Source: Parcubacteria group bacterium (lineage in GTDB: Bacteria > Patescibacteriota > Minisyncoccia > Moranbacterales > UBA2206). Taken from it: 64,000 nt of DNA. Below are positions 37,173 to 62,573 of this stretch, piece by piece (the first letter of the stretch is position 1; every line of letters begins with the position of its first letter). Location of the stretch: NCBI GenBank assembly GCA_041661275.1, contig JBAZUU010000002.1, positions 137,148-201,147 on the forward strand. Direction: 5' to 3'. Made by a program: the position numbers and the translations under genes. The notes beneath the pieces are model-generated. The model ran no database searches. It was not told where the DNA came from and saw only the letters and a list, made by a program, of their open reading frames with translations.

Positions 37173-37239
37173 CCTCTCCCTTCGAGAGAGGATGTCAGCC
37201 AGAATTTTAAGAAAAATTCAGGCTGACAGGGGAGGGCTC
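37173..37239. repeat. MITE/REP-like element family 2, type A (CCTCTCCC-TTCG-AGAGAGG + GTCAGCC..GGCTGAC + GGGAGGG)
   Basis: Nested hairpins; near-identical to 57848-57913 and related to 62425-62481. Confidence 0.6.
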
Positions 37240-37285
37240 TTAATTAAATTCACTAAAATATATATTTTTTCCGTTTTCTATAGTA

Positions 37286-37340
37286 CTCTCTCTGTCACTA
37301 TAAGAATCGTGACATCTCTCCCAAAGGGAGAGAGGGACAC
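37286..37340. repeat. MITE/REP-like element family 2, type B
   Basis: CTCTCTC-TGTCAC..GTGACA-TCTCTCCC-AAAG-GGAGAGAGGG; same architecture as 62525-62573 and 41760-41808. Confidence 0.55.
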
Positions 37341-37348
37341 TTTAAATC

Positions 37349-38866
37349 CTAATACATCAAAACAGCGACAGGCTCCATTTTAGCCACGACATGGGCGATG
37401 CCGTTGGCTTCTACTCCTTCAATCACTTTATCAATGTTTTTATATCGTGCAGAATCTTGGTTTATAACGATTGAGGACTGCGCGTTATACAGTTTTACGC
37501 CCTTGATTTCCATTTTTTCAAACAATTCTTTCTTATTAGTAATAGATTTTTCATTTTGATTAGCGCCTTTGCCGGTTCCGTGCGGAGCGGAAAAGAAACT
37601 TTCCTCATTTCGGTCTGTGCCAACACAAAGATAGGCGTCAGTGCTCATGGAAGAGGGGATGAAAACAGGTTCGCCGGTTTCTCGATAAATCGGATGATGA
37701 GACATTTTGCTTGGACCATATGCGCGAGAGGTGTTGCTGCGGTGCACATATACATCAGATCCAAAATGATTTTCTCCGGATATCGAAATGTGGGGCATGT
37801 CATAGATCAAATCCATTTCCGGATCTTTACCCAAGACTTTTTTTATCGTTTCCGAGATATTATGAGTGATAACGGCACGATTAGCAGTGCCGAAATTAGA
37901 AGCAGCCGCTCGGGCATCCATATACAGCTTCCCATCTTCTCCTTTGGCGTCATATTTCAAAAGTGTCTCGTCTCCGGACATATGTTTTTTTATTCTTTCC
38001 TGCATTTTTCTATAAATATCATTTTTGCGCGTGCTGAAAATTAGTTTTCCCAGATTTACCATGAGGGATTGAGACAGATGTTCACGTTTTTTAGCCGTGT
38101 GGGTGTACATCGTATATTGGCCAAGGATTCCTGATCCGGTGTGAACGAGGAAAAGATATTGGCCTTTTTTGACGCCTAATTTTTCGGCTATCACTGGGTC
38201 AAGAATATCGTTCACTTTCATAAGATCCAAAAAGTGGTTTCCTGCGGCTCCCAAGATTCCCAAGCGGAATTTGGCGAAGAATAAATATAATTTCGGAATA
38301 ACATCAAAAATATTTTTTTTTGTCATTTCGCGAGGGAAAAAATTTCCGCCATTCTGGGTATTTTCTAGCTCATTTTTGGTTTTTATTCCAAGATGTTCAA
38401 TTGCGGCCTGAGTACCTTTCCGGCAAATATCCACTACAACATCAATTGGAACCTTGGTGCCAACAAATTTTTTAGTAGGGACGACTCTGACCAATTTTTT
38501 GAAAAGTTTATCAATTTCTTCTGGGGATAGATTTTCTTCCGTCAGGCTTGTTTTGACTAATCTCATTCCGCAATTTGGATCAGAATCATTAACTTGAGGC
38601 AAAATATAGTTTTCAGAAACAACAGTGGTTCCTGACGCATTTTTCCGTCCAGGTTTTGAGCAAACATCGGGCATAGCTACAAGACTGTGAAAAAGAGTGT
38701 TTTCATTAGAAGCAACATCTTCCAATTTAGAAAAAGTATCATCCTCGGGAAGCAGGTCTTCACTCATAAAGAAAACCGCCGGCACTTTCATTTGGTCAGT
38801 GTTTAGTTCTTTTTTATGGGGGGATATGTTTTTTAATATGTAATTGGGCATAATCCATGTTGTCAT
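37349..38866 (-). CDS. rtcB: RtcB-family RNA ligase (divergent)
   Basis: PDV..G..SGTTV, DSDPNCGMRL (D..CG), VHRSNTSRA and SAPHGTGKG blocks in RtcB order. Confidence 0.6.
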   Translation of the reverse strand: MTTWIMPNYILKNISPHKKELNTDQMKVPAVFFMSEDLLPEDDTFSKLEDVASNENTLFHSLVAMPDVCSKPGRKNASGTTVVSENYILPQVNDSDPNCGMRLVKTSLTEENLSPEEIDKLFKKLVRVVPTKKFVGTKVPIDVVVDICRKGTQAAIEHLGIKTKNELENTQNGGNFFPREMTKKNIFDVIPKLYLFFAKFRLGILGAAGNHFLDLMKVNDILDPVIAEKLGVKKGQYLFLVHTGSGILGQYTMYTHTAKKREHLSQSLMVNLGKLIFSTRKNDIYRKMQERIKKHMSGDETLLKYDAKGEDGKLYMDARAAASNFGTANRAVITHNISETIKKVLGKDPEMDLIYDMPHISISGENHFGSDVYVHRSNTSRAYGPSKMSHHPIYRETGEPVFIPSSMSTDAYLCVGTDRNEESFFSAPHGTGKGANQNEKSITNKKELFEKMEIKGVKLYNAQSSIVINQDSARYKNIDKVIEGVEANGIAHVVAKMEPVAVLMY

Positions 38867-38872
38867 TCCCGC

Positions 38873-38935
38873 GAAAGCGGGAATCTAGTGTATAAATTTA
38901 ATTTTTAAGATTGGATCCCGGGTCAAGCCCGGGAT
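38873..38935. repeat. Pair of GC-rich perfect hairpins in inverted orientation (GTCATTCCCGC-GAAA-GCGGGAATC and GGATCCCGGG-TCAAG-CCCGGGATGAC)
   Basis: Both begin with GTCATYCC, like the TIRs of MITE family 1. They lie between two minus-strand genes. Confidence 0.5.
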
Positions 38936-38940
38936 GACAT

Positions 38941-40107
38941 CTAAAGTTTGTCATAAATCTTTCTATAAATCTCCGCAATATTTTTTATATCAAAATTTTC
39001 TTCCGCAAATTTTCTAGCCTCTTTTCCGATACTTGTGCATTTTTCGCTATTCTCATATAGATCCAGTATTGCTTGATAGAGAGCATCGACATCGTCCTGT
39101 GGGATTATAACAGAGTTATGCTCATTGGTCAGTTCCTTGAGGATCGGCAGATCGGAAATAATCACTGGTTTTTCACAGGCCATAGCTTCTGGAACGAATA
39201 GGGGAATGTCGAACTTTCCTTTCATATTTTTTACTGGAAAAAGAACAGCATCGCAAGTATTATTTACCTTGCTCATCCAATCCGGTCCGCGTGACTGAAG
39301 ACTGGCCTGGGCTTCAATTTCATCGGAATATCTGACGATATCTTCAGCTCCAGCTTCTTTTATTATTTTCTTGACCTCGGCTTTTTTCTCAAAATCTTTT
39401 TCGTCTTTCATCCTTCCGGGAAAACAAATAATGATCTTTCTTTTTCTTAGTTCCGTAGAGAATTTTGTTATCAGGGAAACGATATTATCCATTGCTCCCA
39501 GACGGGCATACTCTCCGCCGATGTATTGGAAGACAAAATCATCATCGCTTATGTTGAACAGTTTTTGTATCTCTCTATCTTTAGGTGTTTTTTTATACAG
39601 ATCAAGATCAATTCCTGGGTAAACTCGTTTGATGTTATTAAAGCCGATAGCATTAAGTTTATTCTTAGCATAGTCAGAGTAGGTGATGATAAGATCAGCG
39701 AAAAGAATATCTTTAAAATCTTTGTCTTTGAATAAATCCTCTCGCAATGTCGCGATAGTTTGAATAGTGCGAGCCCTCTTTTTGTTTATAAAAGTCTTAA
39801 ATGAAAAAGCATTGAGCTTGGTCGGGGTAAGCATATAATGAATAACATCAAAATCTTCCCGAAGAATATGACGCAATTTTAATAATCTTATTCGCTGCAT
39901 GTATGTCAACTTGTTAGAGGTGTAAATAGCTTTTTGATGGATGTGTGGCGGGAGATCAGGGAGAAAACCGTTAGTCAGAAGATAGAAATCGTGCATATCG
40001 AGCGTTTTAGCCAGATAATACGCAAAATTCTTGGAAGCTTCATCCCAAGGCGGAGCGATCGGACGTGTGACCAGTAATATTTTTTTTCTTGGATTTTCTT
40101 CGGTCAT
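38941..40107 (-). CDS. GT4 glycosyltransferase
   Basis: C-terminal EAMACEKPVIISD block (E-x7-E). Confidence 0.8.
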   Translation of the reverse strand: MTEENPRKKILLVTRPIAPPWDEASKNFAYYLAKTLDMHDFYLLTNGFLPDLPPHIHQKAIYTSNKLTYMQRIRLLKLRHILREDFDVIHYMLTPTKLNAFSFKTFINKKRARTIQTIATLREDLFKDKDFKDILFADLIITYSDYAKNKLNAIGFNNIKRVYPGIDLDLYKKTPKDREIQKLFNISDDDFVFQYIGGEYARLGAMDNIVSLITKFSTELRKRKIIICFPGRMKDEKDFEKKAEVKKIIKEAGAEDIVRYSDEIEAQASLQSRGPDWMSKVNNTCDAVLFPVKNMKGKFDIPLFVPEAMACEKPVIISDLPILKELTNEHNSVIIPQDDVDALYQAILDLYENSEKCTSIGKEARKFAEENFDIKNIAEIYRKIYDKL

Positions 40108-40282
40108 ATTTTGGCTTTATTGAGCCAATAGTTTGATTTTAGGCAATCAGCTATTGACAAATTTATAAAATAGGAGTACAATGTATGCAATTATTATTCG
40201 GGTCGTTTGTGGAAGCGTTCGAAAGATGGAGTGACGATTCTCCTCCTATAAACTTTCGAAACACACAACCGGCCCATTTTTT

Positions 40283-40654
40283 TTAAAAATTCTTATAAAT
40301 CTCTTTTTTCTCATCACCAGTTGAAACTTCAATGGTGATTTTTTTGTTTTCTAAATTCCTAGAGTTCAACTCTTGGAAATTCCTAGAGCTAAACTCTAGG
40401 AGGCCATCTTTTCTAATATTTTCATCAGCTTCTTTTATTCTTTCTTTGTCAATTAAAATTACATAATGAAAATTAGTTTTGCCACTGTGATTTTCTATGA
40501 CAAAATTCAAGCTATTATCCTTGGGACTGACAAAATAAATAGACCACCAGTTTTTGCCAAAATTTAAAGTTTCAAATTTTGAGCCTACAGAAAGAAGATA
40601 AGCAGAGCTTAGGATGAATAACGCAACTATAAATATTATTAATTTTTTTTGCAT
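40283..40654 (-). CDS. Small exported/membrane-anchored protein, hypothetical
   Basis: N-terminal signal anchor; internal direct DNA repeats (TTCCTAGAG x2). Confidence 0.45.
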   Translation of the reverse strand: MQKKLIIFIVALFILSSAYLLSVGSKFETLNFGKNWWSIYFVSPKDNSLNFVIENHSGKTNFHYVILIDKERIKEADENIRKDGLLEFSSRNFQELNSRNLENKKITIEVSTGDEKKEIYKNF

Positions 40655-40657
40655 AAA

Positions 40658-42649
40658 TTATTTCCTATAATACACAGCAATATCGTTACTCATATAAACC
40701 TGATTGAATTCTGGCAGTTTTTGGAATTGGGGAGCGTCATACATTGGATTAATAACCAAAAAATCAGTTTTAGTGTCTGAAAAACATTGTTTTGCCTCAT
40801 CGGAACCGGGGCTGGAGATCATAACTAGCGTACAAATTTCGCCGCTGCGGCTGCCTTGCGCTTCATAGCGGCTAAAAAATCCACGTGATTGGGGATATTT
40901 ATACCCGCGCATAAAAAACAATTTCATCCAGGAATCGGCAGTGATATAGTTGTGATCTTTGAGGATCTGGTCGTTGGCGTTTGTATTATCGGCCAGATAT
41001 TTTGAAACATCAAAAGTCTGATTGAGTTGGGTGAGTTCCGCTTGTTTTTTGAAAGCTTGGGCGGAGTCATTGAGTCCTGTAACCAAAACAAAAGCTAAAA
41101 GGATGAGAAATGCTGATTTCAGAAGTTTGTCCATCACATACGGTTTTTCGCATAATTTCTTGCCCCAAAGTGTTTCGTATGATTCCGGACGAAAAACAGT
41201 ATAAAAAGCAAAGGCGGAGAGAATGGCCAGGGGATAGCTTAGATAATTTCCAATGCGGCTTGATGGCAAATCAACAAATAGCAAATTAGGAAAAGATGAC
41301 ATAATAAAAAGCATAAAAGTCCAAGAGGCAAGAAGCGCATATCCGAAATTTTTTCTTCGGAAAGTCAAGATCAGTAATAGAAATCCCAAAAATCCAAGTG
41401 CAAGACGCGGCTCACCGACTGTTTGTTTGATGTTGGTGATGGTGAGGCCGACCCGCGTTGATTTTGTGGCTGCTCCGACAGCGGTGTCAACGGCTTTAGT
41501 GTTGACATAAGTCGGAGTAAAGACAAAAAAGAAAAATATGAGGCCAAGGACAAAAATTCCCAAAACTTGCGGCGAAAAAATAATTTTAGCGGATTTTTTG
41601 AGAACAACTTCTACGTCTTTATAGTTAACGATCAAAAATAGGGGAATGAGCAAGAGGAATATGAACAAAAATATAAAAGACGTGAGGTGGTGGGTGTAGA
41701 AAAGGCCAAAGGTGGTGAAGACGGCGAGGGAAAGGAAAGTCTTACTATTTTTAATAAGAGCCCTCTCCTGTCGCGAAGACGCGACATCCTCTCCCAGAAG
41801 GAGAGGAGGATATTGATTTTTCGAATTAAGAAATTCGAAAGTTCTGTAGTAGAAATAAAATGCCAGTGGCATAAGGAAATTACCGAAAATATTTCCCATG
41901 ACACCACCACTGACATATTTGGCTTGGGGGGATGCGACTGCAAAAAGAACGCCCAAAAAAAGTAATGTTAAAATAGCAATTAATTTATTCTTAAAAATTC
42001 GCAAAGTTAAAATGAAAACAGTCAGGATCCCTAGTAAATTTATTAAGAATAAAACAACAACGGGCCAGCCGGTAAGAAAATTTAATCCGGTCAAAATGTT
42101 AATGCTGGCAAACATGGTGTGTTCGCCAATAATGAAATCAGGCATTCCTTCATAACTGGTCAGTTGATGAGTTTCGGCAATAGTTTTGGCCCAATAGAGA
42201 TGATGGCCAAAATCAGTGGCTGTCGGCGCTATGGCGGTGGAAAGATAGGCAGTCTTAATGAAAATGGTCAGAAATAGCAAAAGTAAAATTAATATAAATT
42301 GGTTTTTGGAGAAAGAAAATAATTTATCTTCGGGCTCGTTTTGGACACGGAGTGTCCAATTGGACACTCCGTGTCCAAGGAATTTATAAATGGAAAAACA
42401 AACCGCTGAAAAAAATAAAACTCCTAAAATTATAGATATTCGTGTAATGCCTATATTTAACTTCGAATAAGTAAAAAGAATAAAATCAACAACAATTATA
42501 CTTAGGCCAAAAGAAATAATAAATCTTTCCAATGTGCTTAGTGCTGCGCTTTTTCTAAACACAGCCAAAAGCAAACAAAATCCCGGCAAAAACATCAAAA
42601 ATCCCACGGCCAGGAAAAATAATATTTGGTTTTGGATAATATTAAGCAT
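40658..42649 (-). CDS. Large polytopic membrane protein, GT-C-like (putative glycosyltransferase); contains in-frame palindromic inserts
   Basis: 663 aa, more than 12 TM helices. Insert-encoded peptide PPLLLGEDVASSRQERAL from the family-2 element (41760-41808). A 38-nt perfect palindrome at 42341-42378 encodes GHGVSNWTLRV. Confidence 0.55.
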   Translation of the reverse strand: MLNIIQNQILFFLAVGFLMFLPGFCLLLAVFRKSAALSTLERFIISFGLSIIVVDFILFTYSKLNIGITRISIILGVLFFSAVCFSIYKFLGHGVSNWTLRVQNEPEDKLFSFSKNQFILILLLLFLTIFIKTAYLSTAIAPTATDFGHHLYWAKTIAETHQLTSYEGMPDFIIGEHTMFASINILTGLNFLTGWPVVVLFLINLLGILTVFILTLRIFKNKLIAILTLLFLGVLFAVASPQAKYVSGGVMGNIFGNFLMPLAFYFYYRTFEFLNSKNQYPPLLLGEDVASSRQERALIKNSKTFLSLAVFTTFGLFYTHHLTSFIFLFIFLLLIPLFLIVNYKDVEVVLKKSAKIIFSPQVLGIFVLGLIFFFFVFTPTYVNTKAVDTAVGAATKSTRVGLTITNIKQTVGEPRLALGFLGFLLLILTFRRKNFGYALLASWTFMLFIMSSFPNLLFVDLPSSRIGNYLSYPLAILSAFAFYTVFRPESYETLWGKKLCEKPYVMDKLLKSAFLILLAFVLVTGLNDSAQAFKKQAELTQLNQTFDVSKYLADNTNANDQILKDHNYITADSWMKLFFMRGYKYPQSRGFFSRYEAQGSRSGEICTLVMISSPGSDEAKQCFSDTKTDFLVINPMYDAPQFQKLPEFNQVYMSNDIAVYYRK
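41760..41808. mobile_element. MITE family 2 (type B) copy inserted in-frame within a CDS
   Basis: CCCTCTCCTGTCGCGAAGACGCGACATCCTCTCCCAGAAGGAGAGGAGG, ~92% identical to the intergenic copy at 62525-62573. Confidence 0.6.
42341..42378. repeat. 38-nt perfect palindrome inside a CDS (TTGGACACGGAGTGTCCAATTGGACACTCCGTGTCCAA)
   Basis: Two self-complementary 15-mers (GGACAC-NNN-GTGTCC) in inverted arrangement around AATT. Confidence 0.6.
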
Positions 42650-43760
42650 TGATAGTTTTTTCTATCTCTTCTAAATATTTTTTAGAAATTTTGTCCCAAG
42701 TAAAATTATCCAGCACATATTGCCGGGCTTTTTCACCGAAAGATTTTCTGAATTCATCATCGGCCAGCACTTCATTTATTTTTTTCACCCAGGCATCAGC
42801 ATCTCCCCAGGGAAGCAAAAATCCATTTTCTCCGTCTTTTATAGCGTCTTTTAGACCTTCAATTCCTGAAGCCAGGATAACTCTTTTACAAACAGCACTT
42901 TCAATGGCTGTGATACCAAAACCTTCCATAGACCCAGGGACTTTTATGTTAGGTGAAACTGAAAGGTCACAAGTGTTAAAAATAATATTCATTTCCGATT
43001 GAGGTAAGTTTGGTAATAGTTTAACCCGTTTTTCCAACCCAAGATCCATTACTGCTTTTTCGCATTTCGGAAAATAATTTTCATCACCAGCGGAATTGGG
43101 CATACCGCCGGCACAGACAAGGATATAATTTTCTTGGAGTTTTGACATTATATTTTTAATAAACCATTCCGTTCCTTTATGTGGTGTAAATCTTCCAGCG
43201 CGAAAAATTACTTTTTTTCCTTCAAGGTCTATGCCTAATACTTTTTCAAGATCTTTTTTAGTCGCGTCAGTATGCGTTCTCTCTAAAATGAGTCCATTGG
43301 GAATAAATACGCATTGTTCCCGTGGTATACCGATTTTTACCGCTTGTTCAATGGATTCATTTCCTACCATAAACAATTTATCCATTTTTTTAAGCGCGGG
43401 GATATTCACTTCTCTATAAATTTTTCCAAAAAGTGATTTTTTGTAGGCGAAAGTAATGTCGAGTCCATGGACGATGGAAATATATTTTTTTCGATTGTAG
43501 AAAAATTTCCAAAGCCGACAAATAGGTGTCAAGACGCCGTCTCCTACAAGAACGACATCATAACGCGGGACAATAAAAAATCCTTTAAACATTAGCCAGG
43601 GTAAAAAAACAGGCAAGAACCTTTTGCCACGTTTATTGGCGATGATTTTTGTAGTAGTAATTTTAGTCAGAGCCTGTGCGATTCCGTAATTCTGATTTTC
43701 GATGCCACCAAGCACTGGCGGATAGGCGCGGGATATAAAAAGTATTTTAGGATTCTTCAT
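42642..43760 (-). CDS. GT4 glycosyltransferase
   Basis: FISRAYPPVLGGIENQNYGIAQAL N-terminal domain plus C-terminal GT1 domain. Confidence 0.85.
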   Translation of the reverse strand: MKNPKILFISRAYPPVLGGIENQNYGIAQALTKITTTKIIANKRGKRFLPVFLPWLMFKGFFIVPRYDVVLVGDGVLTPICRLWKFFYNRKKYISIVHGLDITFAYKKSLFGKIYREVNIPALKKMDKLFMVGNESIEQAVKIGIPREQCVFIPNGLILERTHTDATKKDLEKVLGIDLEGKKVIFRAGRFTPHKGTEWFIKNIMSKLQENYILVCAGGMPNSAGDENYFPKCEKAVMDLGLEKRVKLLPNLPQSEMNIIFNTCDLSVSPNIKVPGSMEGFGITAIESAVCKRVILASGIEGLKDAIKDGENGFLLPWGDADAWVKKINEVLADDEFRKSFGEKARQYVLDNFTWDKISKKYLEEIEKTINA

Positions 43761-43795
43761 AATAAACTTACTTAGACATCAAATGTCTAAGTGGA

Positions 43796-45012: not shown

Positions 45013-45037
45013 ATGTTGATTTTATGCCCCTAATAAG

Positions 45038-45078
45038 CCAAAAATTAACAACAAAAGCAGCTTATCCGAGCTGCTTTT
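45038..45078 (-). terminator. Rho-independent terminator for the dehydrogenase gene
   Basis: Hairpin AAAGCAGCT-TATCCG-AGCTGCTTT (45054-45077), followed on the minus strand by TTTTGTTGTTAATTTTT. Confidence 0.55.
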
Positions 45079-45097
45079 ATTATAGCTTAAATTCAAT

Positions 45098-46378: not shown

Positions 46379-46457
46379 TATATTTCCAGTTAAAAATTAA
46401 TGCCTATCTATTTTAGGTAAGTTTGGAAAAAAAGACAAATTGGTTTAAAATATAGCT

Positions 46458-55286: not shown

Positions 55287-55298
55287 CTTAGGAAACTT

Positions 55299-55739
55299 AT
55301 GAAGGTTATTTTTCTTCAGGATGTGAAAAGTGTTGCTCGAAAAGGCGACATCAAAGACGTGGCCGAGGGCTATGCCCGAAATTTTTTGTTTCCCAAAAAG
55401 ATGGCTGAAATGGCGACTGACGAGGCGATAAAAAATGTCACCGCTCAAAAAGAAAAAGAAAGAGTTGAGGAAGCAAAAAATACTGAAAAAATGAGGCAAT
55501 TGGCGGGCGTTTTGAGAGATATGGAAATTGTGCTAAAATCAAAAGAGAAGAATGGAAAACTTTTTGGTTCGATTTCTAAAAAAGACATTGCCGAAAACTT
55601 GAAAAGAGAAGGATCCGAAATTACGGAAGAAAAAATAATTCTAGAAAATCCTATCAAAAAAATAGGAGAATACAAAATAGAAATAAAATTAACATCCGAC
55701 ATAGTATCGTATATTAAGTTGAAGGTTGAGGGAGTGTAG
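55299..55739 (+). CDS. rplI: 50S ribosomal protein L9
   Basis: [28 protein letters not shown]. Confidence 0.9.
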
Positions 55740-55848
55740 CTGATCTTATAAATATTTATTTTTTCTAAAGTCGCAGGGGAAGGCGGCTTTTTATCTATAA
55801 AAGTATGCGAACGCGCGCTACGAACGCGCACATACGAATATTAAAAAT

Positions 55849-57480
55849 ATGAAAAACCGAAAGTACATCTTTGTTGTCGGGGGAGTGATGAGTGGTGTGG
55901 GAAAAGGGATAACCACATCTTCCATTGGGGCGATTCTGAAAGCGCGCGGATTCAATATTACGGCGCTAAAGATTGATCCTTATATCAATGTTGACGCGGG
56001 AACGATGAATCCGACCGAACACGGAGAAGTATTTGTTTTGGATGATGGCGATGAAACCGACCAGGATATGGGGAATTATGAGAGATTTTTGGATATAACT
56101 TTGACTCGCGATAATTATATGACCACTGGCCGAGTCTATGAAACAGTAATCCACAAAGAAAGAAATTTGGAATATAAAGGAAGATGTGTGGAAGTAGTTC
56201 CGCATATTCCTATGGAAGTCATTGAGCGGATCGAAAAAGCTTCTCGCAAAGCCAAATCAGACATCACTCTCGTGGAAATAGGCGGAACAGTCGGGGAATA
56301 TCAGAATATACTTTTTCTGGAAGCGGCCAGGATGATGAAAATAAAATATCCGGACGACGTGATGTTTGTTATGGTAAGCTATGTTCCTATTCCATCGAAG
56401 GTCGGCGAAATGAAAACAAAACCGACGCAATATGCTGTCCGAACGCTAAATGGTGCCGGAATTTTGCCGGACGTTATCATTGCCAGAAGTGAAACCTATC
56501 TTGACCAGAAAAGAAAAGAAAAGATCGCTATGTTTTGCAATATTCCGGAGCGCTATGTCATTTCCGCGCCTGACGTGGAAAGTATTTACGAAGTGCTTAT
56601 CAACTTTGAGCGCGATGATTTGAGCCGGTTAATTTTGAAAAAATTAGACCTACCATACAAAAAAACCAATCTTAATGATTGGTATAATTTGATGGACAAT
56701 ATTAAAAATGCCAAAGAGAAAGTAAAAATTGGGGTGGTGGGAAAATATTTCGGTACCGGTGATTTTATCCTTTCCGACGCGTATATTTCGGTTTTGGAAG
56801 CTATCAAGCATGCAGCGTATAAGCTAAAAGTAAAGCCGGAGATCAGCTGGATAAATAGTGAACTTTTTGAGCGTGAACCGGAAAAACTGGAGGAGCTTAA
56901 AAATTATGACGGTGTTATCATTCCGGGCGGGTTTGGTTCTCGTGGAGTAGAAGGAAAAATTGCTGCCATAAAATATCTTCGTGAAAACAAAATTCCATTT
57001 TTTGGACTTTGTTATGGAATGCAGTTAGCAGTGATTGAATATACCAGAAATGTTTTAGGCTGCAAAGATGCTAATACCACGGAAATAAATAGAAATACAA
57101 GTTGCCCAGTGATTGACATTATGCGGGAACAAAAGAAAAATCTGAAGGATTCTAACTATGGCGCCACAATGCGACTTGGAGCTTATCCGGCGATTTTGAA
57201 AAAGGGAACAACTGCATATCGAGCTTATGGGAAAGGGAAAATTTCCGAACGTCACAGGCACAGGTGGGAAGTTAATCCTGAATATATCGAGAAACTGGAA
57301 AAAGCCGGGCTAGTTTTTTCCGGAATTTCTCCTGACCGAAAACTGATGGAAATTACAGAACTGCCGAAAACTATCCACCCATTCTTTCTTGGCACGCAAT
57401 TTCATCCGGAGTTGAAATCAAAACCATTGAATGCTCACCCACTTTTTTATGAATTTGTGAAAGTAGCCAGCAAAAAATAG
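55849..57480 (+). CDS. pyrG: CTP synthase
   Basis: KYIFVVGGVMSGVGKGI..; GATase domain GLCYGMQ; 543 aa. Confidence 0.95.
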   Translation: MKNRKYIFVVGGVMSGVGKGITTSSIGAILKARGFNITALKIDPYINVDAGTMNPTEHGEVFVLDDGDETDQDMGNYERFLDITLTRDNYMTTGRVYETVIHKERNLEYKGRCVEVVPHIPMEVIERIEKASRKAKSDITLVEIGGTVGEYQNILFLEAARMMKIKYPDDVMFVMVSYVPIPSKVGEMKTKPTQYAVRTLNGAGILPDVIIARSETYLDQKRKEKIAMFCNIPERYVISAPDVESIYEVLINFERDDLSRLILKKLDLPYKKTNLNDWYNLMDNIKNAKEKVKIGVVGKYFGTGDFILSDAYISVLEAIKHAAYKLKVKPEISWINSELFEREPEKLEELKNYDGVIIPGGFGSRGVEGKIAAIKYLRENKIPFFGLCYGMQLAVIEYTRNVLGCKDANTTEINRNTSCPVIDIMREQKKNLKDSNYGATMRLGAYPAILKKGTTAYRAYGKGKISERHRHRWEVNPEYIEKLEKAGLVFSGISPDRKLMEITELPKTIHPFFLGTQFHPELKSKPLNAHPLFYEFVKVASKK

Positions 57481-57554
57481 GAATTAATCCGAGATTTTGA
57501 AGTCAAAAAGCCCCGCTCAAGCAGGACTTTTGATATTTTCAATTTTAATACGAC

Positions 57555-57827
57555 CTACTCTACCGAAACCAATCTTCGCATGGTCAATTTTCCTGTGAAT
57601 GAGGGCATTTTTCTGGTAGAAAATTTTACCACACCGTCTTTCATCGCAAAAAGAGTATCATCTTCGCCACGCTTAACATTTTTTCCGGGATGAAATTTGG
57701 TTCCGCGCTGACGGATGATAATTTGTCCGATTTTTACTTTTTCTCCACCAAAAAGCTTCACTCCTAATCTTTTAGAAATGGAATCTCGTCCTAGTTGGGT
57801 AGAGCCGCCGGCTTTTCTGTGCGCCAT
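57555..57827 (-). CDS. rpmA: 50S ribosomal protein L27
   Basis: [29 protein letters not shown]. Confidence 0.9.
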
Positions 57828-57847
57828 ATAATTAGTAACTTACATTA

Positions 57848-57913
57848 TCCTCCTCTCCCTTTGGGAGAGGATGTCAGCCTGAATTTTCTTAAATTCTGGC
57901 TGACAGGAGAGGG
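57848..57913. repeat. MITE/REP-like element family 2, type A copy
   Basis: CCTCTCCCTTTGGGAGAGGATGTCAGCCTGAATTTTCTTAAATTCTGGCTGACAGGAGAGGGA, ~90% identical to 37173-37239. Confidence 0.6.
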
Positions 57914-57981
57914 ACAATATAGCTAAAAAGATAAACTTTATTTACAGAACGTAGTTTATCAAGTATATGATATAATGTCAA

Positions 57982-58082
57982 CCCCGTATAGAAATCAGAC
58001 AACTTTAATGGTATATTATATATAGTCTTAATCTATAATAAAATATTGGTTAAGAAAATAACTCGTCTGATTTCTAACGGGG
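57982..58082. repeat. Family 3 inverted-repeat element (arms CCCCGTATAGAAATCAGAC / GTCTGATTTCTAACGGGG, ~60-nt AT-rich loop)
   Basis: Arm sequence shared with the 50697-50743 hairpin. The right arm overlaps the annotated TTG start region of the next gene. Confidence 0.5.
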
Positions 58083-58087
58083 TAAAT

Positions 58088-58498
58088 ATGCTGGTTAAAA
58101 TAAAAGAAATACTAAAAAATAATGAATATAAGATCATTCTTGTTTTTGGCTTTATCTTGGTAGCTGTTCTATCGTTTGAGGCGGGAATGATGAAAGGTCA
58201 AGCTATAAAACAAAATCAAGTGGTTGTCAATAGCAACAGTGCTGAAACTGTTTGTGGGGCGAGTTCCGGCCAGGCTACCGAAGCCTCAAATTTGACCTCT
58301 GAGGACGCCAAACCCGGAGATAATAAAAATATACCACCCCAAAACTGTGCCTTTGTTGGTTCTAAAAATTCCAATAAATATCATCTTCCAACCTGCCAAT
58401 ATGCCAAGAGGATTAAGCCGGAAAATACCACTTGCTTTAAGGATAAAAATGAGGCAGAATTAAGAGGGTATCAGCCCGATAAGAGTTGCATCAAATAA
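58088..58498 (+). CDS. Membrane-anchored protein with C-terminal Ada-type zinc-binding-like domain; ATG at 58088 preferred over the TTG at 58046
   Basis: TM helix ILVFGFILVAVLSF. KYHLPTCQYAKRIKPENTTCFKDKNEAELRGYQPDKSC resembles the Ada metal-binding motif (YH.P.C...I...N..F....EA...GY.PC). Confidence 0.5.
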   Translation: MLVKIKEILKNNEYKIILVFGFILVAVLSFEAGMMKGQAIKQNQVVVNSNSAETVCGASSGQATEASNLTSEDAKPGDNKNIPPQNCAFVGSKNSNKYHLPTCQYAKRIKPENTTCFKDKNEAELRGYQPDKSCIK

Positions 58499-58502
58499 AC
58501 TT

Positions 58503-59219
58503 TTGCATATACATAATCTTATGAAAAACGGCAAAAAAATAATTGTCATATCTTTGGGTGGGTCGCTTATCGTTCCAAAGCATATTGACTGGCGTTTTTT
58601 GAAAAAATTCAGGGAACTGATATTAAAACAGATAAAGAAAGGAAAAAAATTTATTATTATCACCGGCGGAGGTTATGCCGCCCGTGAATACCAGAATGAT
58701 GCCTGCAAAGTGACAGAACTGACGACTAATGATCGCGACTGGCTGGGAATCCACGCCACCCGCATGAACGCGCATCTTGTTCGCACTATTTTCAGAGATT
58801 TCTCCCACCCCAGAATCAACAAAAATCCCAATGATCTTGAGGATTTTTTTAATTTCAAGGAAAGCATCCTGGTAGCGGCCGGATGGCGTCCTGGATTTTC
58901 CACCGATTTTGACGCAGTGACTTTGGGAAAATATTTTGGCGTGAAAAATGTTGTCAATTTGTCTAATATAGATTATGTTTATAATAAGGATCCAAAAAAA
59001 TTCAAAAGTGCCAAAAAGATTCGAGAAATTTCCTGGACAGAATTTAGGAAGATAGTAGGGGATAAGTGGGATCCGGGACTTAATGCTCCTTTTGACCCGA
59101 TTGCTTCCAAAATTGCGCAGGAGGCTCAAATGGAAGTAGTCATCATGAATGGAAAAAAATTGAAAAATTTGGAAAGTTACTTGGAAGGAAAAAAATTCAC
59201 CGGGACGGTGATAAAATAA
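58503..59219 (+). CDS. pyrH: Amino-acid-kinase family protein, probably archaeal-type UMP kinase
   Basis: KIIVISLGGSLI and ITGGGYAAREY motifs; 238 aa. Confidence 0.55.
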   Translation: MHIHNLMKNGKKIIVISLGGSLIVPKHIDWRFLKKFRELILKQIKKGKKFIIITGGGYAAREYQNDACKVTELTTNDRDWLGIHATRMNAHLVRTIFRDFSHPRINKNPNDLEDFFNFKESILVAAGWRPGFSTDFDAVTLGKYFGVKNVVNLSNIDYVYNKDPKKFKSAKKIREISWTEFRKIVGDKWDPGLNAPFDPIASKIAQEAQMEVVIMNGKKLKNLESYLEGKKFTGTVIK

Positions 59220-59242
59220 ATCAAACCATAAATTTCTATGCT

Positions 59243-59707
59243 TTGAACAAAGCGAATAGGGAGGGGTTTATGAAACGATTTACGGCTGGTGATGCAAGGT
59301 TAGTAACTAAAAAGAACGGAAAAGAAGTCCTGTCGGCTAGCGACGACCCAGACGAGAGCATTAAACAGCGAATTATAGAGGTGATGCGCAAGAAAGCCGT
59401 TGGTGATGAAAAAAAAGCGCATGTTTATTTCGATCCGGATGGCGCGCCTGGGTCTCATCTCTATTTTGATCCAAGGGACGAATCCTTGCTGGATCAGCTC
59501 CGGTATCTGGATAAGAAAAGAAGATGGATCGTCAAAGAACTGGTCGCGGTTGGATATCGCGTCATTGTTTCGAAGGAGATGGTTTGTCGTATATGTACTG
59601 GCTTGCCCAGTAATCCGTGCGATGAGTGCAATGGCAAAAAACCTGTTGGCATCTCATTTGAACGTCAGGATTGGATTTCCTACAGTTACATAGAAGTACG
59701 CTGGTAA
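59243..59707 (+). CDS. Hypothetical protein with C-terminal CxxC..CxxC zinc ribbon
   Basis: CRICTGLPSNPCDECNGK; no family match. Confidence 0.45.
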   Translation: MNKANREGFMKRFTAGDARLVTKKNGKEVLSASDDPDESIKQRIIEVMRKKAVGDEKKAHVYFDPDGAPGSHLYFDPRDESLLDQLRYLDKKRRWIVKELVAVGYRVIVSKEMVCRICTGLPSNPCDECNGKKPVGISFERQDWISYSYIEVRW

Positions 59708-59796
59708 AAGCAACGTGGGTCGGGGAGAACTCTCTCCGACCCAAGAAATATAAAAACAAAACCCCGAAAGGGATTTTTTTGTTTGTGAAAAAATAT

Positions 59797-60267
59797 TTAT
59801 TTGAATCTGATCTTGTGATATTTGAGCAAAAAATAAAGAAGAAAATAAAAGACCAGGGAAATAGCAAGAGAGACAATTATAAATCCGGTGATAAGTGGCA
59901 GGAGCAAGTTAGTGAAAATTGTTTCTGTAAAAAAATATTTCCAGCCCAAATTATGAGTGGCTTTAAAGTTATTTATAAGAGTTTCGGAATTAGTATGAAA
60001 TAAAAATCCGCCCACTGTTGCGGCCAGAGACATAATGAGAAAGGTCGTCCACATGTTGACGGCTAAAACGCCAGCAGTAGCCGAGAGGCGGTTAAAACGC
60101 AAAATAGAAGCCGTAATCAGCGTTGTGGCCACGCCTTCCCCGGGCATAATGCCCCAAAAAATACCCAAAGCCGCTCCGGCTGCGACTTTATGGGGAGAAT
60201 CGTCAATGAGGAAGAATTTTTTGATGAAGTTTTTGATTTTTTGAAGCATATAATAATGCGCCGTCAT
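59797..60267 (-). CDS. DUF2062-family membrane protein
   Basis: DDSPHKVAAGAALGIFWGIMPGEGVATTLITASILR matches the DUF2062 core. Confidence 0.6.
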   Translation of the reverse strand: MTAHYYMLQKIKNFIKKFFLIDDSPHKVAAGAALGIFWGIMPGEGVATTLITASILRFNRLSATAGVLAVNMWTTFLIMSLAATVGGFLFHTNSETLINNFKATHNLGWKYFFTETIFTNLLLPLITGFIIVSLAISLVFYFLLYFLLKYHKIRFK

Positions 60268-60425
60268 CCCGAGCGTAGTGATGTCGCATAGCGACAGAAC
60301 GCAGTCGAGGGATCTGCTTTACATTATTTCTGGCTATAATTTCTGCCAGTAATAAAACTAGAAGTAGTCATTAGCAGATCCTTCGACTTCGTTCGGATAA
60401 ATCCTCACTCCGCTCAGAATGACGG
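60261..60425. mobile_element. MITE family 1 copy (~165 nt), intergenic
   Basis: TIRs CCGTCATCCCGAGCGTAGTGATG / CCTCACTCCGCTCAGAATGACGG and internal blocks matching 48318-48451. Confidence 0.65.
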
Positions 60426-60434
60426 GAAACGGGG

Positions 60435-61559
60435 TTATTTCTTTTTTACTATTAAACTGGCACTTTCCTTATCCACTACTTTGGCTTTTTCCACTCCTTG
60501 TCTGGCTTCCAGCGGCAAAACACCCAAAATATTTCTAAGCGCGATACCGTCAACTTTTCTGATGTCGTCCCACTTTCCAAGCGGTTCCAAAATTTCTTTT
60601 AATTTTTTATCATCATATTTATATGTCTTGCGCAAAGTTCTGGCGATTATCCCACCTTCGGAAAAAACCCGTTCCACGCCTTCCTGGTTCATATAATTGA
60701 CAATATCTTCCTGCAACTTTCCAATTCTTTCTTTGGTTATATTCATGGCCGAGCGTAGTTCGATAAATTCAGAAATCAGATTATTAACTTCTTCTGTATC
60801 AATTTTTCGCAGCTCCTTAAATTTATGTTTCCACATCGGGCATTGATTTTGATATCCGCACCAGTCGCAAAGAGGGGATACTTGCGGCTCAAATTTGCTT
60901 TCTTTTATTTTGGCGATAGTTTCCAGAAATTGTTTGCGGCTTGATTCCAATTGTTCTTCGGTTCTTGTGGCCGAAAGTTTTACGCCGTGCTTTAGAAAAT
61001 ATAAACTGACTTTTATTTTATCCAAATTATTTTTTTCGTTGGGGTATTGAGAAAGAAAAGCGTTCAGATATACCGAAAGCTGGATGTCGTTTTCCACTCG
61101 CTCTTGCGTCGGCATCTTTTTGGTCGTTTTATAATCAATAATTTCATATCCATCATCCGTCCGGTCAATGCGGTCAATGATGCCAGAGATGATATGATTC
61201 TCGTCCTCGCCTGGCAGTTCGATTTGAAAGCGCGATTCCAAGTTCACGATATTAAAATCAACCGGATTATTCCGCTTGAAATAGTCCTGGATAATTTTCA
61301 CGCCCTGGGTAAAAGCAGCCCGTTCTTCGTCCGGATTTTCGAAAATTACCGGATTCCAGGAATTAGAAAAATGTTCCATGGCCTGGTCTAGGTTGGGGGA
61401 TATGATACCCGGAGTATGGATAAATTTCATAACATCATGCAAGGTCGAGCCAAAAACCGCCTCTTTGGATTTGGGCGTCCTGATCTTGTCAATTTCCTGA
61501 AACTTATATTTCAGGGGGCAAGTTCTGTATGTGTCAAAAGCACTGTATGAAATACGCAT
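60435..61559 (-). CDS. PD-(D/E)XK nuclease superfamily protein (RecB/Cas4-like domain) with C-terminal Cys cluster
   Basis: IDRIDRTDDGYEIIDYKT (D..E.DYK) motif; C-terminal CDWCGYQNQCPMW cysteines. Confidence 0.65.
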   Translation of the reverse strand: MRISYSAFDTYRTCPLKYKFQEIDKIRTPKSKEAVFGSTLHDVMKFIHTPGIISPNLDQAMEHFSNSWNPVIFENPDEERAAFTQGVKIIQDYFKRNNPVDFNIVNLESRFQIELPGEDENHIISGIIDRIDRTDDGYEIIDYKTTKKMPTQERVENDIQLSVYLNAFLSQYPNEKNNLDKIKVSLYFLKHGVKLSATRTEEQLESSRKQFLETIAKIKESKFEPQVSPLCDWCGYQNQCPMWKHKFKELRKIDTEEVNNLISEFIELRSAMNITKERIGKLQEDIVNYMNQEGVERVFSEGGIIARTLRKTYKYDDKKLKEILEPLGKWDDIRKVDGIALRNILGVLPLEARQGVEKAKVVDKESASLIVKKK

Positions 61560-61729
61560 AAAAATGGTATAAAGTATACGGTATTTAGTAGCTAGTATGG
61601 GAATTATAGCATAAATATCGAGGCTGTGGATAACTTTCTTTGACTTAATTTTTAATCAATGAAAGAATAAAAATAACAGTTCTTTCTTCGAATATGATTG
61701 GTGAGGCGTGGAATTAGCCCAAACTCTAG

Positions 61730-61972
61730 CCTATACGAGTGGAGGGTTGCAGGATTGCTGTCTGTCAATAACGGACCGACAGAGACAAAAAGGATAGGAG
61801 ATATACACAATATGGCTCTTTCCTTGCATATCCTGAGTAGGATCATAGATCCGAAGCAGGGAGTTACCTCCCAAGGCTAAACCCTCGCCAATTATCTTTT
61901 CATCACATTTCATCACATTTTTTCTCTTTCCGGCACTATCTTATCTCTATCAGATAGTGCTTTTTCTTTTTG
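61730..61972 (+). ncRNA. Candidate structured non-coding RNA (unknown class) with its own terminator, upstream of iscR
   Basis: Enclosing helix TGGAGGGTT/AACCCTCGCCA around four local hairpins. Terminator CACTATCT-N10-AGATAGTG plus CTTTTTCTTTTTG (61934-61972) on the plus strand, although the upstream gene is on the minus strand. Confidence 0.3.
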
Positions 61973-62001
61973 TTGACAAAATTTGATACGCTTAGTATTA
62001 T
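61973..62001 (+). promoter_or_regulatory. Sigma70-like promoter of iscR (TTGACA-N17-TATTAT)
   Basis: Consensus -35 (61973-61978) and near-consensus -10 (61996-62001), ~30 nt upstream of the start codon. Confidence 0.55.
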
Positions 62002-62032
62002 TAACATATACTAATATAGTAGGAATAAGAAA

Positions 62033-62419
62033 ATGAAATTTTCAACTAGAGCTGAATATGGGTTAAAAGCTATGGTCAATTTGGCCAGATGTTATCCGGA
62101 ACAAAAAAATATCAAGGCTATAAGTCGCGATGAAAATATCTCGGTGAAATATCTGGAACGACTAGTAGGGGAATTGAGAAAAAATAATCTAGTCACCAGC
62201 CAGATCGGAAAAAGTGGGGGATATACCCTGGCTAAAAAACCAGCTCTCATAAAAGTCGGAGAAATTATTGAAATTGTTGAAGGGCCGATCGCGCCGATGG
62301 GATGCGTGGGAAAGAAATGTGCTATGGAAAAGAAATGTACATCTTCTATTGTATGGAATAAGGTAGGAGTGCAAATAAAAAAGACTTTGTATGGGATAAA
62401 ATTAAGTGAATTAATATAA
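62033..62419 (+). CDS. iscR: Rrf2-family transcriptional regulator (IscR-like)
   Basis: MKFSTRAEYGLKAMVNLA.. wHTH plus three Cys (C92, C97, C103-like); directly upstream of iscS. Confidence 0.85.
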   Translation: MKFSTRAEYGLKAMVNLARCYPEQKNIKAISRDENISVKYLERLVGELRKNNLVTSQIGKSGGYTLAKKPALIKVGEIIEIVEGPIAPMGCVGKKCAMEKKCTSSIVWNKVGVQIKKTLYGIKLSELI

Positions 62420-62424
62420 GCGAG

Positions 62425-62481
62425 CTCTCCTTCTCTCCCTTTGGGAGAGAAGTCCTGATTCTTATCAGGACAGAGAGGGAA
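62425..62481. repeat. MITE/REP-like element family 2, type A variant
   Basis: TCTCTCCC-TTTG-GGAGAGA + AGTCCTGAT-TCT-TATCAGGAC + AGAGAGGGA. Confidence 0.55.
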
Positions 62482-62524
62482 CTTAGTAAGGCAAAATATA
62501 TAATTTAGTGAATTTAACATAAAA

Positions 62525-62573
62525 CCCTCTCCTGTCGCGAAGACGCGACCTCCTCTCCCGAAGGGAGAGGAGG
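62525..62573. repeat. MITE/REP-like element family 2, type B copy
   Basis: CCCTCTCCTGTCGCGAAGACGCGACCTCCTCTCCCGAAGGGAGAGGAGG; paralog of the intragenic 41760-41808 copy. Confidence 0.6.

Follow-up and report, generated by a model that had tools for sequence, protein, structure and literature searches.

The window, by which we mean the whole 64-kb stretch of the Parcubacteria group contig analysed here, includes rtcB and tmk, a gene for a DUF1616 membrane protein, rpmA (L27) and the iscR–iscS pair, with short structured repeats lying beside or inside them (Table 1). Scanning for hairpins whose 5' arm is all pyrimidine and whose complementary arm is all purine (stem of 7 bp or more, loop of 3–7 nt) returned six in the window, exactly the six sites given in an earlier note on this DNA, whereas fifty shuffled versions gave 0.36 on average and never more than 2. 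The core CTCTCC-N-GGAGAG is exact at five of the six and degenerate at 37173. Five copies are intergenic, as the note had it, but they occupy only three intergenic regions, forming two inverted pairs and one single copy, and the paired clustering that had been likened to REP doublets was thereby recovered. The sixth copy lies within the DUF1616 gene, and the family extends beyond the window with a seventh (c7), found in priA ~6.4 kb outside. The seven probably constitute one family of short non-coding repeats.

Table 1. Repeat copies, composite spacers and the host gene of the intragenic copy (positions of the window; Y, pyrimidine; R, purine).
Feature	Positions	Strand	Parts	Remarks
c1	37172–37236	+ (G-rich, class II reading)	Y arm 37172–37180; R arm 37184–37192; hairpin 2 37193–37227; mirror third block 37228–37236	most decayed copy of the set; 18 nt upstream of the tmk start codon (37154, − strand)
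Spacer, 37.2-kb composite	37237–37285			AT-rich; contains TTTAGTGAATTTAATTAAGAG on − strand
c2	37286–37333	− (class II reading)	third block 37286–37293; hairpin 2 37294–37314; R arm 37315–37322; Y arm 37326–37333	R-arm subfamily GGGAGAGA; 15 nt past the RtcB stop codon
Host gene of c3	40658–42649	−		663-aa DUF1616 membrane protein
c3	41761–41808	− (class II on coding strand)	third block 41761–41769; hairpin 2 41770–41786; R arm 41787–41795	within the DUF1616 ORF
c4	57851–57913	+ (class II)	Y arm 57851–57859; R arm 57863–57871; hairpin 2 57872–57904; third block 57905–57913	9/9 triplets; long hairpin 2; 23 nt upstream of the rpmA start codon (57827, − strand)
c5	62431–62479	+ (class II)	Y arm 62431–62439; R arm 62443–62451; hairpin 2 62452–62471; third block 62472–62479	11 nt past the iscR (Rrf2) stop codon
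Spacer, 62.4-kb composite	62480–62524			contains TTTAGTGAATTTAACATAAAA
c6	62525–62573	− (class II)	third block 62525–62533; hairpin 2 62534–62549; R arm from 62550	end 21 nt upstream of the iscS start codon (62595)

The repeats had been described as nested hairpins with a G-rich closing arm, in two subtypes, A and B. They are indeed dispersed structured repeats with two hairpins, but the supposed closing arm has no consistent complementary partner and instead repeats the purine arm in mirror order. The elements are not nested hairpins; they present a homopyrimidine, homopurine and mirror-homopurine motif, a known layout for intrastrand triplexes (PMC4666352). Types A and B are reverse complements and so represent one element in two orientations. 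The order of parts is pyrimidine arm, loop, purine arm, variable hairpin and mirror purine block, and with DNA parameters all seven copies fold into two abutting hairpins followed by an unpaired purine tail (z-scores −4.6 to −7.2). The tail matches the purine arm in mirror triplets at 9/9 positions in c4 and c6, 8–9 in c3, 8/8 in c5, 7/8 in c2 and 7/9 in c1, which also has one C·A mismatch in its first hairpin. The core CCTCTCC reads the same in both directions, and within the window the evidence for a mirror relation is confined to the outer one or two positions and to one variant common to c2 and c5.

The strong support for the mirror reading is found in other genomes, where the third block stands in mirror register with the purine arm at ~200 loci spread over many phyla; because the collection of these loci was seeded with a pattern fixing CTCTCCC-N4-GGAGAG, its commonest family is over-represented. 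For hairpin sides with non-symmetric purine arms, a perfect copy within 60 nt was mirrored in 61 cases and direct in 12, and the mirror match was better than the direct one in 132 and worse in 50. In a set of 73, picked without regard to the third block and outside the search pattern, 24 reached a mirror match of at least 7/8 and five a direct one. At least eight different purine arms have their own mirror block (GGGAGAGGA, GGGAGAGA, GGGAGAAGG, GGAGGGAG, GGGGAGG, AAGGGAAG, AGGGGAG and AAGAGGG), and T opposite A is tolerated in the third block (GGGAGTGGG for GGGAGAGGG), which is consistent with a purine motif on DNA and not with a pyrimidine motif on RNA. The second hairpin, 16–35 nt long and variable in sequence, takes the place of the usual 3-nt second loop. 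A perfect stem of at least 5 bp spans 70 of the 122 long linkers, compared with 2.6 in shuffles, and it is kept across 44 different stem sequences in these 70, of which 30 have C-GNA-G loops; the second hairpins of c5 and c2 are two compensatory pair changes apart.

Neighbouring elements across the loci form 47 inverted and 8 tandem pairs. The two pairs of the window are copies of one ~165-bp composite (79% identity over the aligned flanked segments) whose spacer is conserved between them, and each of the three composites seen has TTTAGTGAATTTAATTAAGAG conserved beside its C-rich copy. Comparison of orthologous sites for presence and absence, which the earlier note had proposed as a check, supports gain and loss between relatives and a patchy distribution: among 80 iscS loci of relatives only 3 have any such element, two relatives with the same gene order lack one in the rtcB–tmk spacer, and a close relative has a composite between wecG and ligT. 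At the wecG–ligT site of the present genome a different palindrome stands in place of the composite, and this site and that in DUF1616 also gather other repeat families. Three sites, namely the DUF1616 loop, the priA linker and the iscR–iscS spacer, are shared with distant relatives.

Two of the seven copies are translated in frame, and both occupy variable loops. As previously stated, the copy at 41760–41808 is read through in the 663-aa ORF as PPLLLGEDVASSRQERAL; the insert corresponds to residues 281–298 of the DUF1616 protein and begins in a loop that lies between predicted helices and is modelled with low confidence (pLDDT < 50 at residues 278–288), while c7 lies in the linker ahead of the PriA helicase core. 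The ~92% identity between 41760–41808 and 62525–62573 holds (45 of 49 positions), but it is no proof of the recent mobility deduced from it, because homologues 57–75% identical to the DUF1616 protein carry the element at the same site; closer homologues are without it. The in-frame copy is real but not demonstrably recent. Survival in frame where extra residues are tolerated is also a property of the Rickettsia palindromic elements (RPEs), short palindromic repeats in protein-coding genes that Ogata et al. reportedly described in 2000, with a length of ~100–150 bp. RPEs differ from the window family in sequence, size and host, and we know of no triplex layout for them.

The succession on one strand of a pyrimidine arm, a complementary purine arm and a mirroring purine block, with class II on one strand and class IV on the other, recalls BoxC/PIT/TMECO, an intrastrand triplex motif present in E. 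coli and further Proteobacteria (Holder et al., NAR 2015; PMC4666352; earlier work by Hoyne and Maher is cited therein). TMECO is defined as CCCTCNCCC-N3-6-GGGNGAGGG-N3-GGGNGAGGG, forms a stable class II triplex by CD and NMR, and occurs in inverted pairs in E. coli (PMC4666352). Its arms (CCCTCTCCC/GGGAGAGGG) are nearly the same as those of the window family (TCCTCTCCC/GGGAGAGGA), and both are multi-copy, arranged in inverted pairs of two subtypes, patchy between close relatives and without a transposase nearby. They differ in the second loop (3 nt in TMECO, up to 6 nt in the ITxF search, vs. the stable variable hairpin here), in the stems (8–9 triplets here, with an all-purine third block where TMECO usually has T at one position) and in the host, here a low-GC genome of the Patescibacteria (Moranbacteria); moreover, TMECO is always intergenic in E. 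coli. The same order of parts is found in Whalefall-1 (Rfam RF01762), with a UCUCUCC/GGAGAGA hairpin, a variable hairpin and a conserved unpaired purine tail (GgGuGAGGA) that, read from the consensus, mirrors the purine arm at 6/7 positions. Whalefall-1 is listed as a small RNA whose only source is whale-fall metagenomes (Weinberg et al., 2010; PMC2864571), and no triplex reading of it was found in the passages of that article consulted. The Whalefall-1 model aligns with c2 and c5 end to end; at 18.4 bits, below the gathering score of 37, membership of the copies in this Rfam family was rejected.

We therefore regard the repeats, on the evidence of their sequence, as probably a hairpin-capped variant of the BoxC/PIT/TMECO triplex motifs, selfish or at most structurally acting DNA, whose conserved property would be the ability of one single-stranded DNA strand to fold into an intrastrand triple helix. 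On the G-rich strand, TCCTCTCCC would pair with GGGAGAGGA over a 3–5-nt loop, the variable hairpin (GTC...GAC), directly adjoining the purine arm, would reverse the chain direction, and the final block, AGGAGAGGG, which mirrors the purine arm, would lie antiparallel in the major groove with G·G-C and A·A-T triplets, giving a triplex of the class II purine motif; the matching layout on the complementary strand would be the class IV pyrimidine one. In the cell such a triplex may be transient, arising while DNA is single-stranded during replication, repair or transfer, and the fold may drive copying through a trans-acting enzyme or template switching. Footprinting with DMS in living E. coli did not reveal the TMECO triplex, and in vitro duplex DNA prevails once the complement is present (PMC4666352). 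Selfish-like behaviour is suggested by the inverted pairs with a conserved spacer, by subfamilies within one genome, by gain and loss between relatives, and by survival in genes only in frame within a tolerant loop or linker. No target-site duplication was found for the elements, nor, in the 74 kb examined, a mobilising enzyme, so that 'mobile' here describes their distribution; searches for a promoter, terminator, ribosome-binding or transposase role likewise found none.

It is unlikely that the elements are REP/REPIN palindromic doublets copied by a single-copy RAYT (IS200-like Y1) encoded elsewhere, with the purine and pyrimidine blocks as the recognition sequence of the enzyme. The predominance of inverted pairs with a spacer, which in REPINs form the replicative unit, the single copies resembling remnants, the subfamilies behaving as populations in one genome and the variable presence among relatives all recall REPINs (Bertels and Rainey, 2011; PMC3116915), and a faint Y1_Tnp-like gene occurs in a related Moranbacteria contig (L123, 3906–4400). 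However, no elements adjoin that gene, and tblastn with its product gave no homologue in the window or in other CPR loci. The REP hallmarks were also not found, as the elements lack the conserved GTAG head and no RAYT gene was found in the 74 kb examined (Pfam labels for 30.6–64 kb of the window and ~10 kb beyond showed no transposase; 1–30.6 kb was covered by tblastn only); transposase remnants were not found near E. coli TMECO sites either (PMC4666352). Finally, a third block that co-varies in mirror symmetry with the purine arm in at least eight families would not be expected of simple palindromes. This alternative concerns the copying enzyme only, and the triplex layout is compatible with it. 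Action as RNA, whether as Whalefall-1-like small non-coding RNAs or as 5'-leader elements, is very improbable. In a leader, the C-rich reading (third block, hairpin, pyrimidine arm, purine arm) could form a pyrimidine-motif RNA triple helix, or a GGAGG ribosome-binding site could be hidden upstream of tmk, rpmA and iscS. Three copies do lie 18–23 nt upstream of start codons, and the part of each that is closest to the gene is the purine arm GGAGAGGAGG; a promoter-like site precedes c4 at rpmA, and Whalefall-1, which matches two copies over their length, is considered a likely RNA by its authors (PMC2864571). Yet the orientation beside start codons follows from inverted-pair geometry regardless of gene strand, and both orientations relative to transcription occur (c2, c3 and c5 vs. 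c1, c4, c6 and c7). The Shine-Dalgarno motif is absent upstream of the genes of this genome (41 starts listed), and the purine arm is 12–21 nt from the ATG. The pyrimidine motif would need protonated cytosine in 6/9 triplets, and this RNA-compatible motif is broken by the T-for-A change that is widespread in the third block (C-rich strand, CCCTCACC), a change that fits the DNA purine motif, which does not form in RNA (PMC4666352). The composites contain no promoter or terminator consensus, and PIT elements showed neither activity in E. coli.

Retention for a host role at the DNA level, as replication pauses, hot spots of recombination and genome plasticity, or binding sites of a nucleoid or repair protein that would recognise the triplex or hairpin, seems to us unlikely. 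The element structure stays intact in coding sequence while the surrounding protein has diverged to ~60% identity, and intact intragenic copies across homologues 57–75% identical could reflect selection for host function instead of selfishness; E. coli TMECO loci are, in addition, flanked by unusually variable DNA (PMC4666352). An essential role is not indicated by the 77 of 80 iscS loci of relatives without elements, and no partner protein was identified. Leading-strand bias is absent, as GC skew is positive over nearly the whole window and the copies divide 3:3 between the strands, or 3:4 with c7. The occurrence of elements at the same three sites in distant relatives, and of other repeat families at DUF1616 and wecG–ligT, would also suit a host role, but tolerance of these sites accounts equally well for their repeated use.

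The six sites singled out in the earlier note are real, with the same building blocks found at each on direct reading, and a regular-expression search located the core CTCTCC-N-GGAGAG at five of them and a degenerate form at 37173. Hairpins of at least 7 bp that join an all-pyrimidine 5' arm to its all-purine complement occur at exactly six places in the 64 kb, whereas 50 shuffles of the window averaged 0.36 and never exceeded 2, a count that confirms the repeats as beyond chance. The "type A" and "type B" subtypes distinguished there proved to be reverse complements of one element which, on its G-rich strand, consists of a pyrimidine arm (Y), a first loop, a purine arm (R), a second hairpin and a third, purine block. 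Copies c1 to c6 lie in the window, and a seventh, c7, was found about 6.4 kb past its end in the extended stretch of the same contig (L208), which comes from a Parcubacteria/Moranbacteria metagenome-assembled genome. The Y/R stems of the seven copies measure 8-11 bp and their loops 3-5 nt, c1 having one mismatch, and both the window copies and c7 contain the homopyrimidine/homopurine hairpin (loop 3-6 nt) that characterizes the intrastrand triplex motif.

Positions and composition of the elements and of other features discussed in the text (window coordinates unless a locus is named: L208, extended stretch of the same contig; L123 and L125, Moranbacteria relatives; L210, a close relative)
Feature	Position	Strand (G-rich reading)	Setting or composition	Mirror triplets
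c1	37172-37236	+	between rtcB and tmk, with c2	7/9 (decayed)
c2	37286-37333	-	between rtcB and tmk, with c1	7/8
c3	41761-41808	-	inside DUF1616 membrane-protein gene	8-9
c4	57851-57913	+	upstream of rpmA	9/9
c5	62431-62479	+	between iscR and iscS, with c6	8/8
c6	62525-62573	-	between iscR and iscS, with c5	9/9
c7	L208 17796-17868		priA
Y arm			first on G-rich strand, TCCTCTCCC
First loop			between Y and R, 3-5 nt
R arm			G-rich strand, GGGAGAGGA
Second hairpin			after R, (T)GTC...GAC, 16-35 nt
Third block			last, purine, AGGAGAGGG
Second hairpin of c1	37193-37227
Second hairpin of c4	57872-57904
Second hairpin of c7	L208 17808-17845
AT-rich hairpin core, other subfamily	L210 16566-16640
Mixed inverted pairs	L125 1493-1597 and 9604-9710
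Gene with Y1_Tnp-like match	L123 3906-4400
GTAG...CTAC-headed palindromic repeat	35947-35974		GTAGAGATGCAAAATTTTGCGTCTCTAC, inside MurJ-like ORF 35063-36595(-)
Related GTAG...CTAC pair	L208 16650-16700		GTAGAGACGCAATTTATTGCGTC..., fills the wecG-ligT spacer
Strong palindrome	42341-42378		TTGGACACGGAGTGTCCAA, inside DUF1616 ORF
Strong palindrome	40357-40401		TCCTAGAGTT...AACTCTAGGA, inside ORF 40283-40654(-)

Folded with DNA parameters, every copy gives two adjoining hairpins and leaves the last block unpaired (z-scores -4.6 to -7.2), the folding tools covering Watson-Crick and G-U pairs only. This last block had been described as a closing arm; it is not complementary to nearby sequence and is the mirror image of R. 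Third blocks were assessed as mirror repeats 3' of R built of G.G-C, A.A-T or T.A-T triplets, at least 6-8 in number with no more than one mismatch, and those of the copies are of this kind. As a general feature, a closing arm forming a three-way junction was rejected over 104 elements, in which the longest Watson-Crick helix between 5' flank and 3' tail averaged 3.5 bp, against 3.1 bp with shuffled flanks.

A full-text literature search with the purine arm GGGAGAGGG pointed to Holder et al. (2015; PMC4666352), where the E. coli repeat called BoxC, PIT or TMECO is given as CCCTCNCCC-N3-6-GGGNGAGGG-N3-GGGNGAGGG and described as a class II purine-motif intrastrand triplex, stable in vitro by CD and NMR. 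In E. coli TMECO is always intergenic, is without promoter or terminator activity, has no transposase nearby, is frequently arranged in inverted pairs that join two subtypes and is associated with locally variable DNA (PMC4666352). The window elements resemble it in their three-block layout and nearly the same arms, TCCTCTCCC and GGGAGAGGA agreeing with the TMECO consensus at 8/9 positions, but the spacing does not fit: the second loop is a hairpin of 16-35 nt in the window copies, as compared to 3 nt in the TMECO consensus and 1-6 nt in ITxF, and the copies match neither the short-second-loop definition nor the full TMECO consensus. Since loops longer than 6 nt (ITxF) or 10 nt lay outside the published searches (PMC4666352), a form of this kind would have been missed. 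Among the known intrastrand triplex repeats the window elements thus make up a hairpin-capped variant. Their layout, covariation, pairing, turnover and survival in frame are shown by the data, while formation of the triplex in the cell and the mechanism of copying are inferred. In another Moranbacteria genome (L125) BoxC-like copies with a short loop (CCCTCTCCC...GGGAGAGGG-CTG-GGGAGAGGG) are joined to hairpin-capped ones in inverted pairs, the pair spacer being ATATTTGCAA; the two forms thus coexist and pair with each other.

The mirror relation between R and the third block extends well beyond this contig. A scan of 185,579 species genomes, with a pattern that constrained nothing but the Y/R core and the hairpin 2 base, matched at least 119 loci in many phyla, those among the matches listed including Moraniibacteriota, Uhrbacteria, Saccharibacteria, Firmicutes, Ignavibacteriales, Planctomycetota and Proteobacteria; together with the window, the matches listed hold at least 223 elements in which 7 or more mirror triplets follow one another without a break. 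For non-symmetric R arms among these matches, a perfect copy no more than 60 nt away was in mirror orientation in 61 cases and direct in 12, and, counted over hairpin sides, the mirror register beat the direct one in 132 cases and lost in 50. A further set was drawn by requiring that a second hairpin of whatever kind follow the Y/R hairpin, the third block being ignored and the scanned core excluded, and here a mirror match of at least 7/8 was found in 24 of the 73 elements among the matches listed, as compared to 5 direct matches. At least 8 different R sequences are each accompanied by their own mirror block, e.g., GGGAGAAGG by GGATGAGGG, GGAGGGAG by GAGGGAGG, AAGGGAAG by GAAGGGAT and GGGGAGG by GGAGGGG; Y, R and third block show three-way covariation. 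For R = GGGAGAGGG, the commonest third block among the matches listed carries a T opposite one A (GGGAGTGGG read in mirror), and the complement of this variant, CCCTCACC, breaks the pyrimidine motif. T.A-T triplets are permitted in the DNA purine motif, RNA being limited to the pyrimidine motif (PMC4666352).

The second hairpin varies in sequence and keeps its pairing. Among the matches listed, a perfect stem of at least 5 bp spans the linker in 70 of the 122 distinct elements whose linker reaches 10 nt, the same test on shuffled linkers giving 2.6 on average and 7 at most, and the 70 stems comprise 44 different sequences; the stem is thus kept by compensatory change. A compensatory difference also separates hairpin 2 of c2 from that of c5 (GTCAC...GTGAC vs. 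GTCCT...AGGAC). Loops of the form C-GNA-G, which are unusually stable DNA triloops, were found in 30 of the 70 (among the matches listed), while copies from candidate-phyla-radiation (CPR) bacteria have G-TNNT-C tetraloops instead, TCTT in the window. When the elements are aligned in one orientation, hairpin 2 of c1 reads as the reverse complement of that of c4 and c7, with loop TCTTA vs. TAAGA and bulge T/T vs. A/A, and the hairpin module has apparently been inverted; an AT-rich hairpin core resembling it occurs in an element of another subfamily in the close relative L210.

No Rfam match was found in the window at gathering threshold, and among known RNA families the sole meaningful match below it was Whalefall-1 (RF01762), those to mir-2545, Phe-leader and others being palindrome artefacts. 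Copies c2 and c5 align with Whalefall-1 over the full model length at 18.4 bits (E ~0.01), the gathering score being 37, and none of 18 related loci reached that score; by the Rfam criterion the window copies are not Whalefall-1 members. The Whalefall-1 consensus nevertheless has the layout of the elements, with a variable hairpin after the Y/R one and a conserved tail, GgGuGAGGA, that stays unpaired and mirrors the purine arm at 6/7 positions (consensus read by eye), and this suggests that it falls in the same structural class. In PMC2864571 Whalefall-1 is presented as a likely non-coding RNA from whale-fall metagenomes only; this "small RNA" of Rfam may be a DNA element. A G-quadruplex was also considered, and in the window copies the GG/GGG tracts are interrupted by hairpins and would allow two tetrads at best; for TMECO, NMR favoured the triplex over the quadruplex (PMC4666352).

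Masking of ribosome-binding sites was rejected: the regions upstream of 41 long ORFs in the window are AT-rich and lack a Shine-Dalgarno motif, so that the GGAGG of the purine arm, which lies 12-21 nt from the ATG, is unlikely to be a ribosome-binding site. Consensus scans for promoters or terminators in the elements and spacers of the composites remained at shuffle background, with no T-run after the hairpins, and the only promoter-like site, that of rpmA, lies upstream of c4. The window has a positive GC skew over nearly its whole length and the G-rich reading falls three times on each strand (3 to 4 with c7), without replication-strand bias. Carriage by phages was rejected on finding only 6 matching stretches among 2.9 million viral contigs.

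That the elements cluster in pairs was borne out: the window holds two inverted doublets with a shared spacer, each ordered as G-rich-strand copy, spacer with TTTAGTGAATTTAA and C-rich-strand copy. Both pairs represent a single composite and share 79% identity across their aligned segments with flanks, and a third composite copy stands between wecG and ligT in the close relative (L210; PriA 86% identical), a site occupied in this genome by a different GTAG...CTAC palindrome. Across loci, neighbouring elements among the matches listed are inverted in 47 cases and tandem in 8, and neighbour pairs often join two subfamilies, as reported for E. coli. The surroundings of iscS were surveyed in 80 metagenomic relatives (44-70% identity; 598 kb in total), and only 3 of the 80 loci contained elements, shuffles giving none; in one of the three, L155 (68% identity), an element pair lies directly upstream of iscS, as in the window. 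The rtcB-tmk spacer has no element in two relatives that keep the gene order. The iscR-iscS region is the same in the three other assemblies of this species, and a metagenome scan with IscS returned relatives of no more than 70% identity.

Two copies are translated. Copy c3 is read in frame in the DUF1616 gene, and in an alignment of 26 homologues element-derived peptides (PPLPLGEDV..., PLLLSQGEGG...) stand at its position in proteins of 57-75% identity, the closest homologues (79-81%) and several others being without insert. At the DNA level, three insert-bearing homologues have an element that agrees with c3 in site and orientation: those of L125 and of a further related genome, L126, have intact triplex blocks and a different hairpin 2, which in L126 is identical to one common in other Moranbacteria loci, and that of L123 belongs to another subfamily and is decayed. 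Further homologues carry other repeat-derived peptides at the c3 site; three from other lineages (P0003, P0036 and P0046) have peptides typical of another repeat family, IASEAKQS...PRND, which points to the loop as a general landing or tolerance site for repeats. An AlphaFold model from the alignment (mean pLDDT 68.8; residues 278-288 below 50) places the beginning of the c3 insert in a predicted, low-confidence loop between helices. Copy c7, in frame in priA and opposite in orientation to c3, encodes EPSPVSHKFSEKFELTSSPKGRGG; it is common to a 73%-identical PriA homologue, at about 90% nucleotide identity (read by eye), and missing from closer homologues of 78-86% identity. The 92% identity of c3 and c6 had been taken as a sign of recent mobility, but since the c3 and c7 sites are occupied also in distant homologues it is no evidence of a recent jump: both sites are either of long standing or used repeatedly, and the copies could also owe their similarity to structural constraint or to gene conversion.

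As regards a mobilizing enzyme, tblastn over the whole window returned no RAYT, the Y1 transposase whose gene REP elements usually flank, Pfam labels gave no transposase between 30.6 and 64 kb and about 10 kb beyond, and the GTAG-type head of REP/REPIN is missing from both ends of every copy. The flanks of c1-c7 show no direct duplication of a target site, and the sole orthologous "empty" site, wecG-ligT, contains a different repeat. Of the marks of a MITE (terminal inverted repeats, target-site duplication and a related autonomous insertion sequence), the composite shows inverted ends; no parent insertion sequence was seen. In the syntenic polysaccharide cluster of the related contig L123, a 164-aa gene between GT4 and Wzy genes gives a faint Y1_Tnp (IS200-like) Pfam match; it is missing at the same position in the window and has no adjoining triplex elements.

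Few non-B DNA structures are abundant in bacteria; intrastrand triplex motifs belong to them, and have no established function or copying mechanism. The present elements extend the family to reduced Patescibacteria genomes in a form that published search rules would miss, and the covariation of three strands is natural-history evidence that triplex geometry is conserved. They can persist in frame in essential-looking genes, e.g., priA, and explain odd low-complexity peptides in CPR proteins (PPLPLGE..., SSPKGRGG), a point of use for annotation; Whalefall-1 will probably have to be reinterpreted as a DNA element. A broader and, in our judgement, improbable view would hold the triplex fold itself to be under selection even in genes: it would be preserved in the DUF1616 loop and the priA linker of proteins that have diverged to ~60-73% identity, and it co-varies in three strands in many phyla. 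The elements would on this view be a pan-bacterial, structure-defined class of DNA, copied by an enzyme that recognises a triplex on single-stranded DNA or used by the host at replication forks; the hairpin-capped form would then be a previously unrecognised major branch, spanning CPR, Firmicutes and Ignavibacteria, with Whalefall-1 reread as DNA.

Two further strong palindromes, inside the DUF1616 ORF and inside ORF 40283-40654(-), are unrelated in sequence to the triplex family. The GTAG...CTAC repeat of the MurJ-like ORF, to which the pair in the wecG-ligT spacer is related, looks like a classical REP-type family and is possibly the "family 1" of the earlier note.
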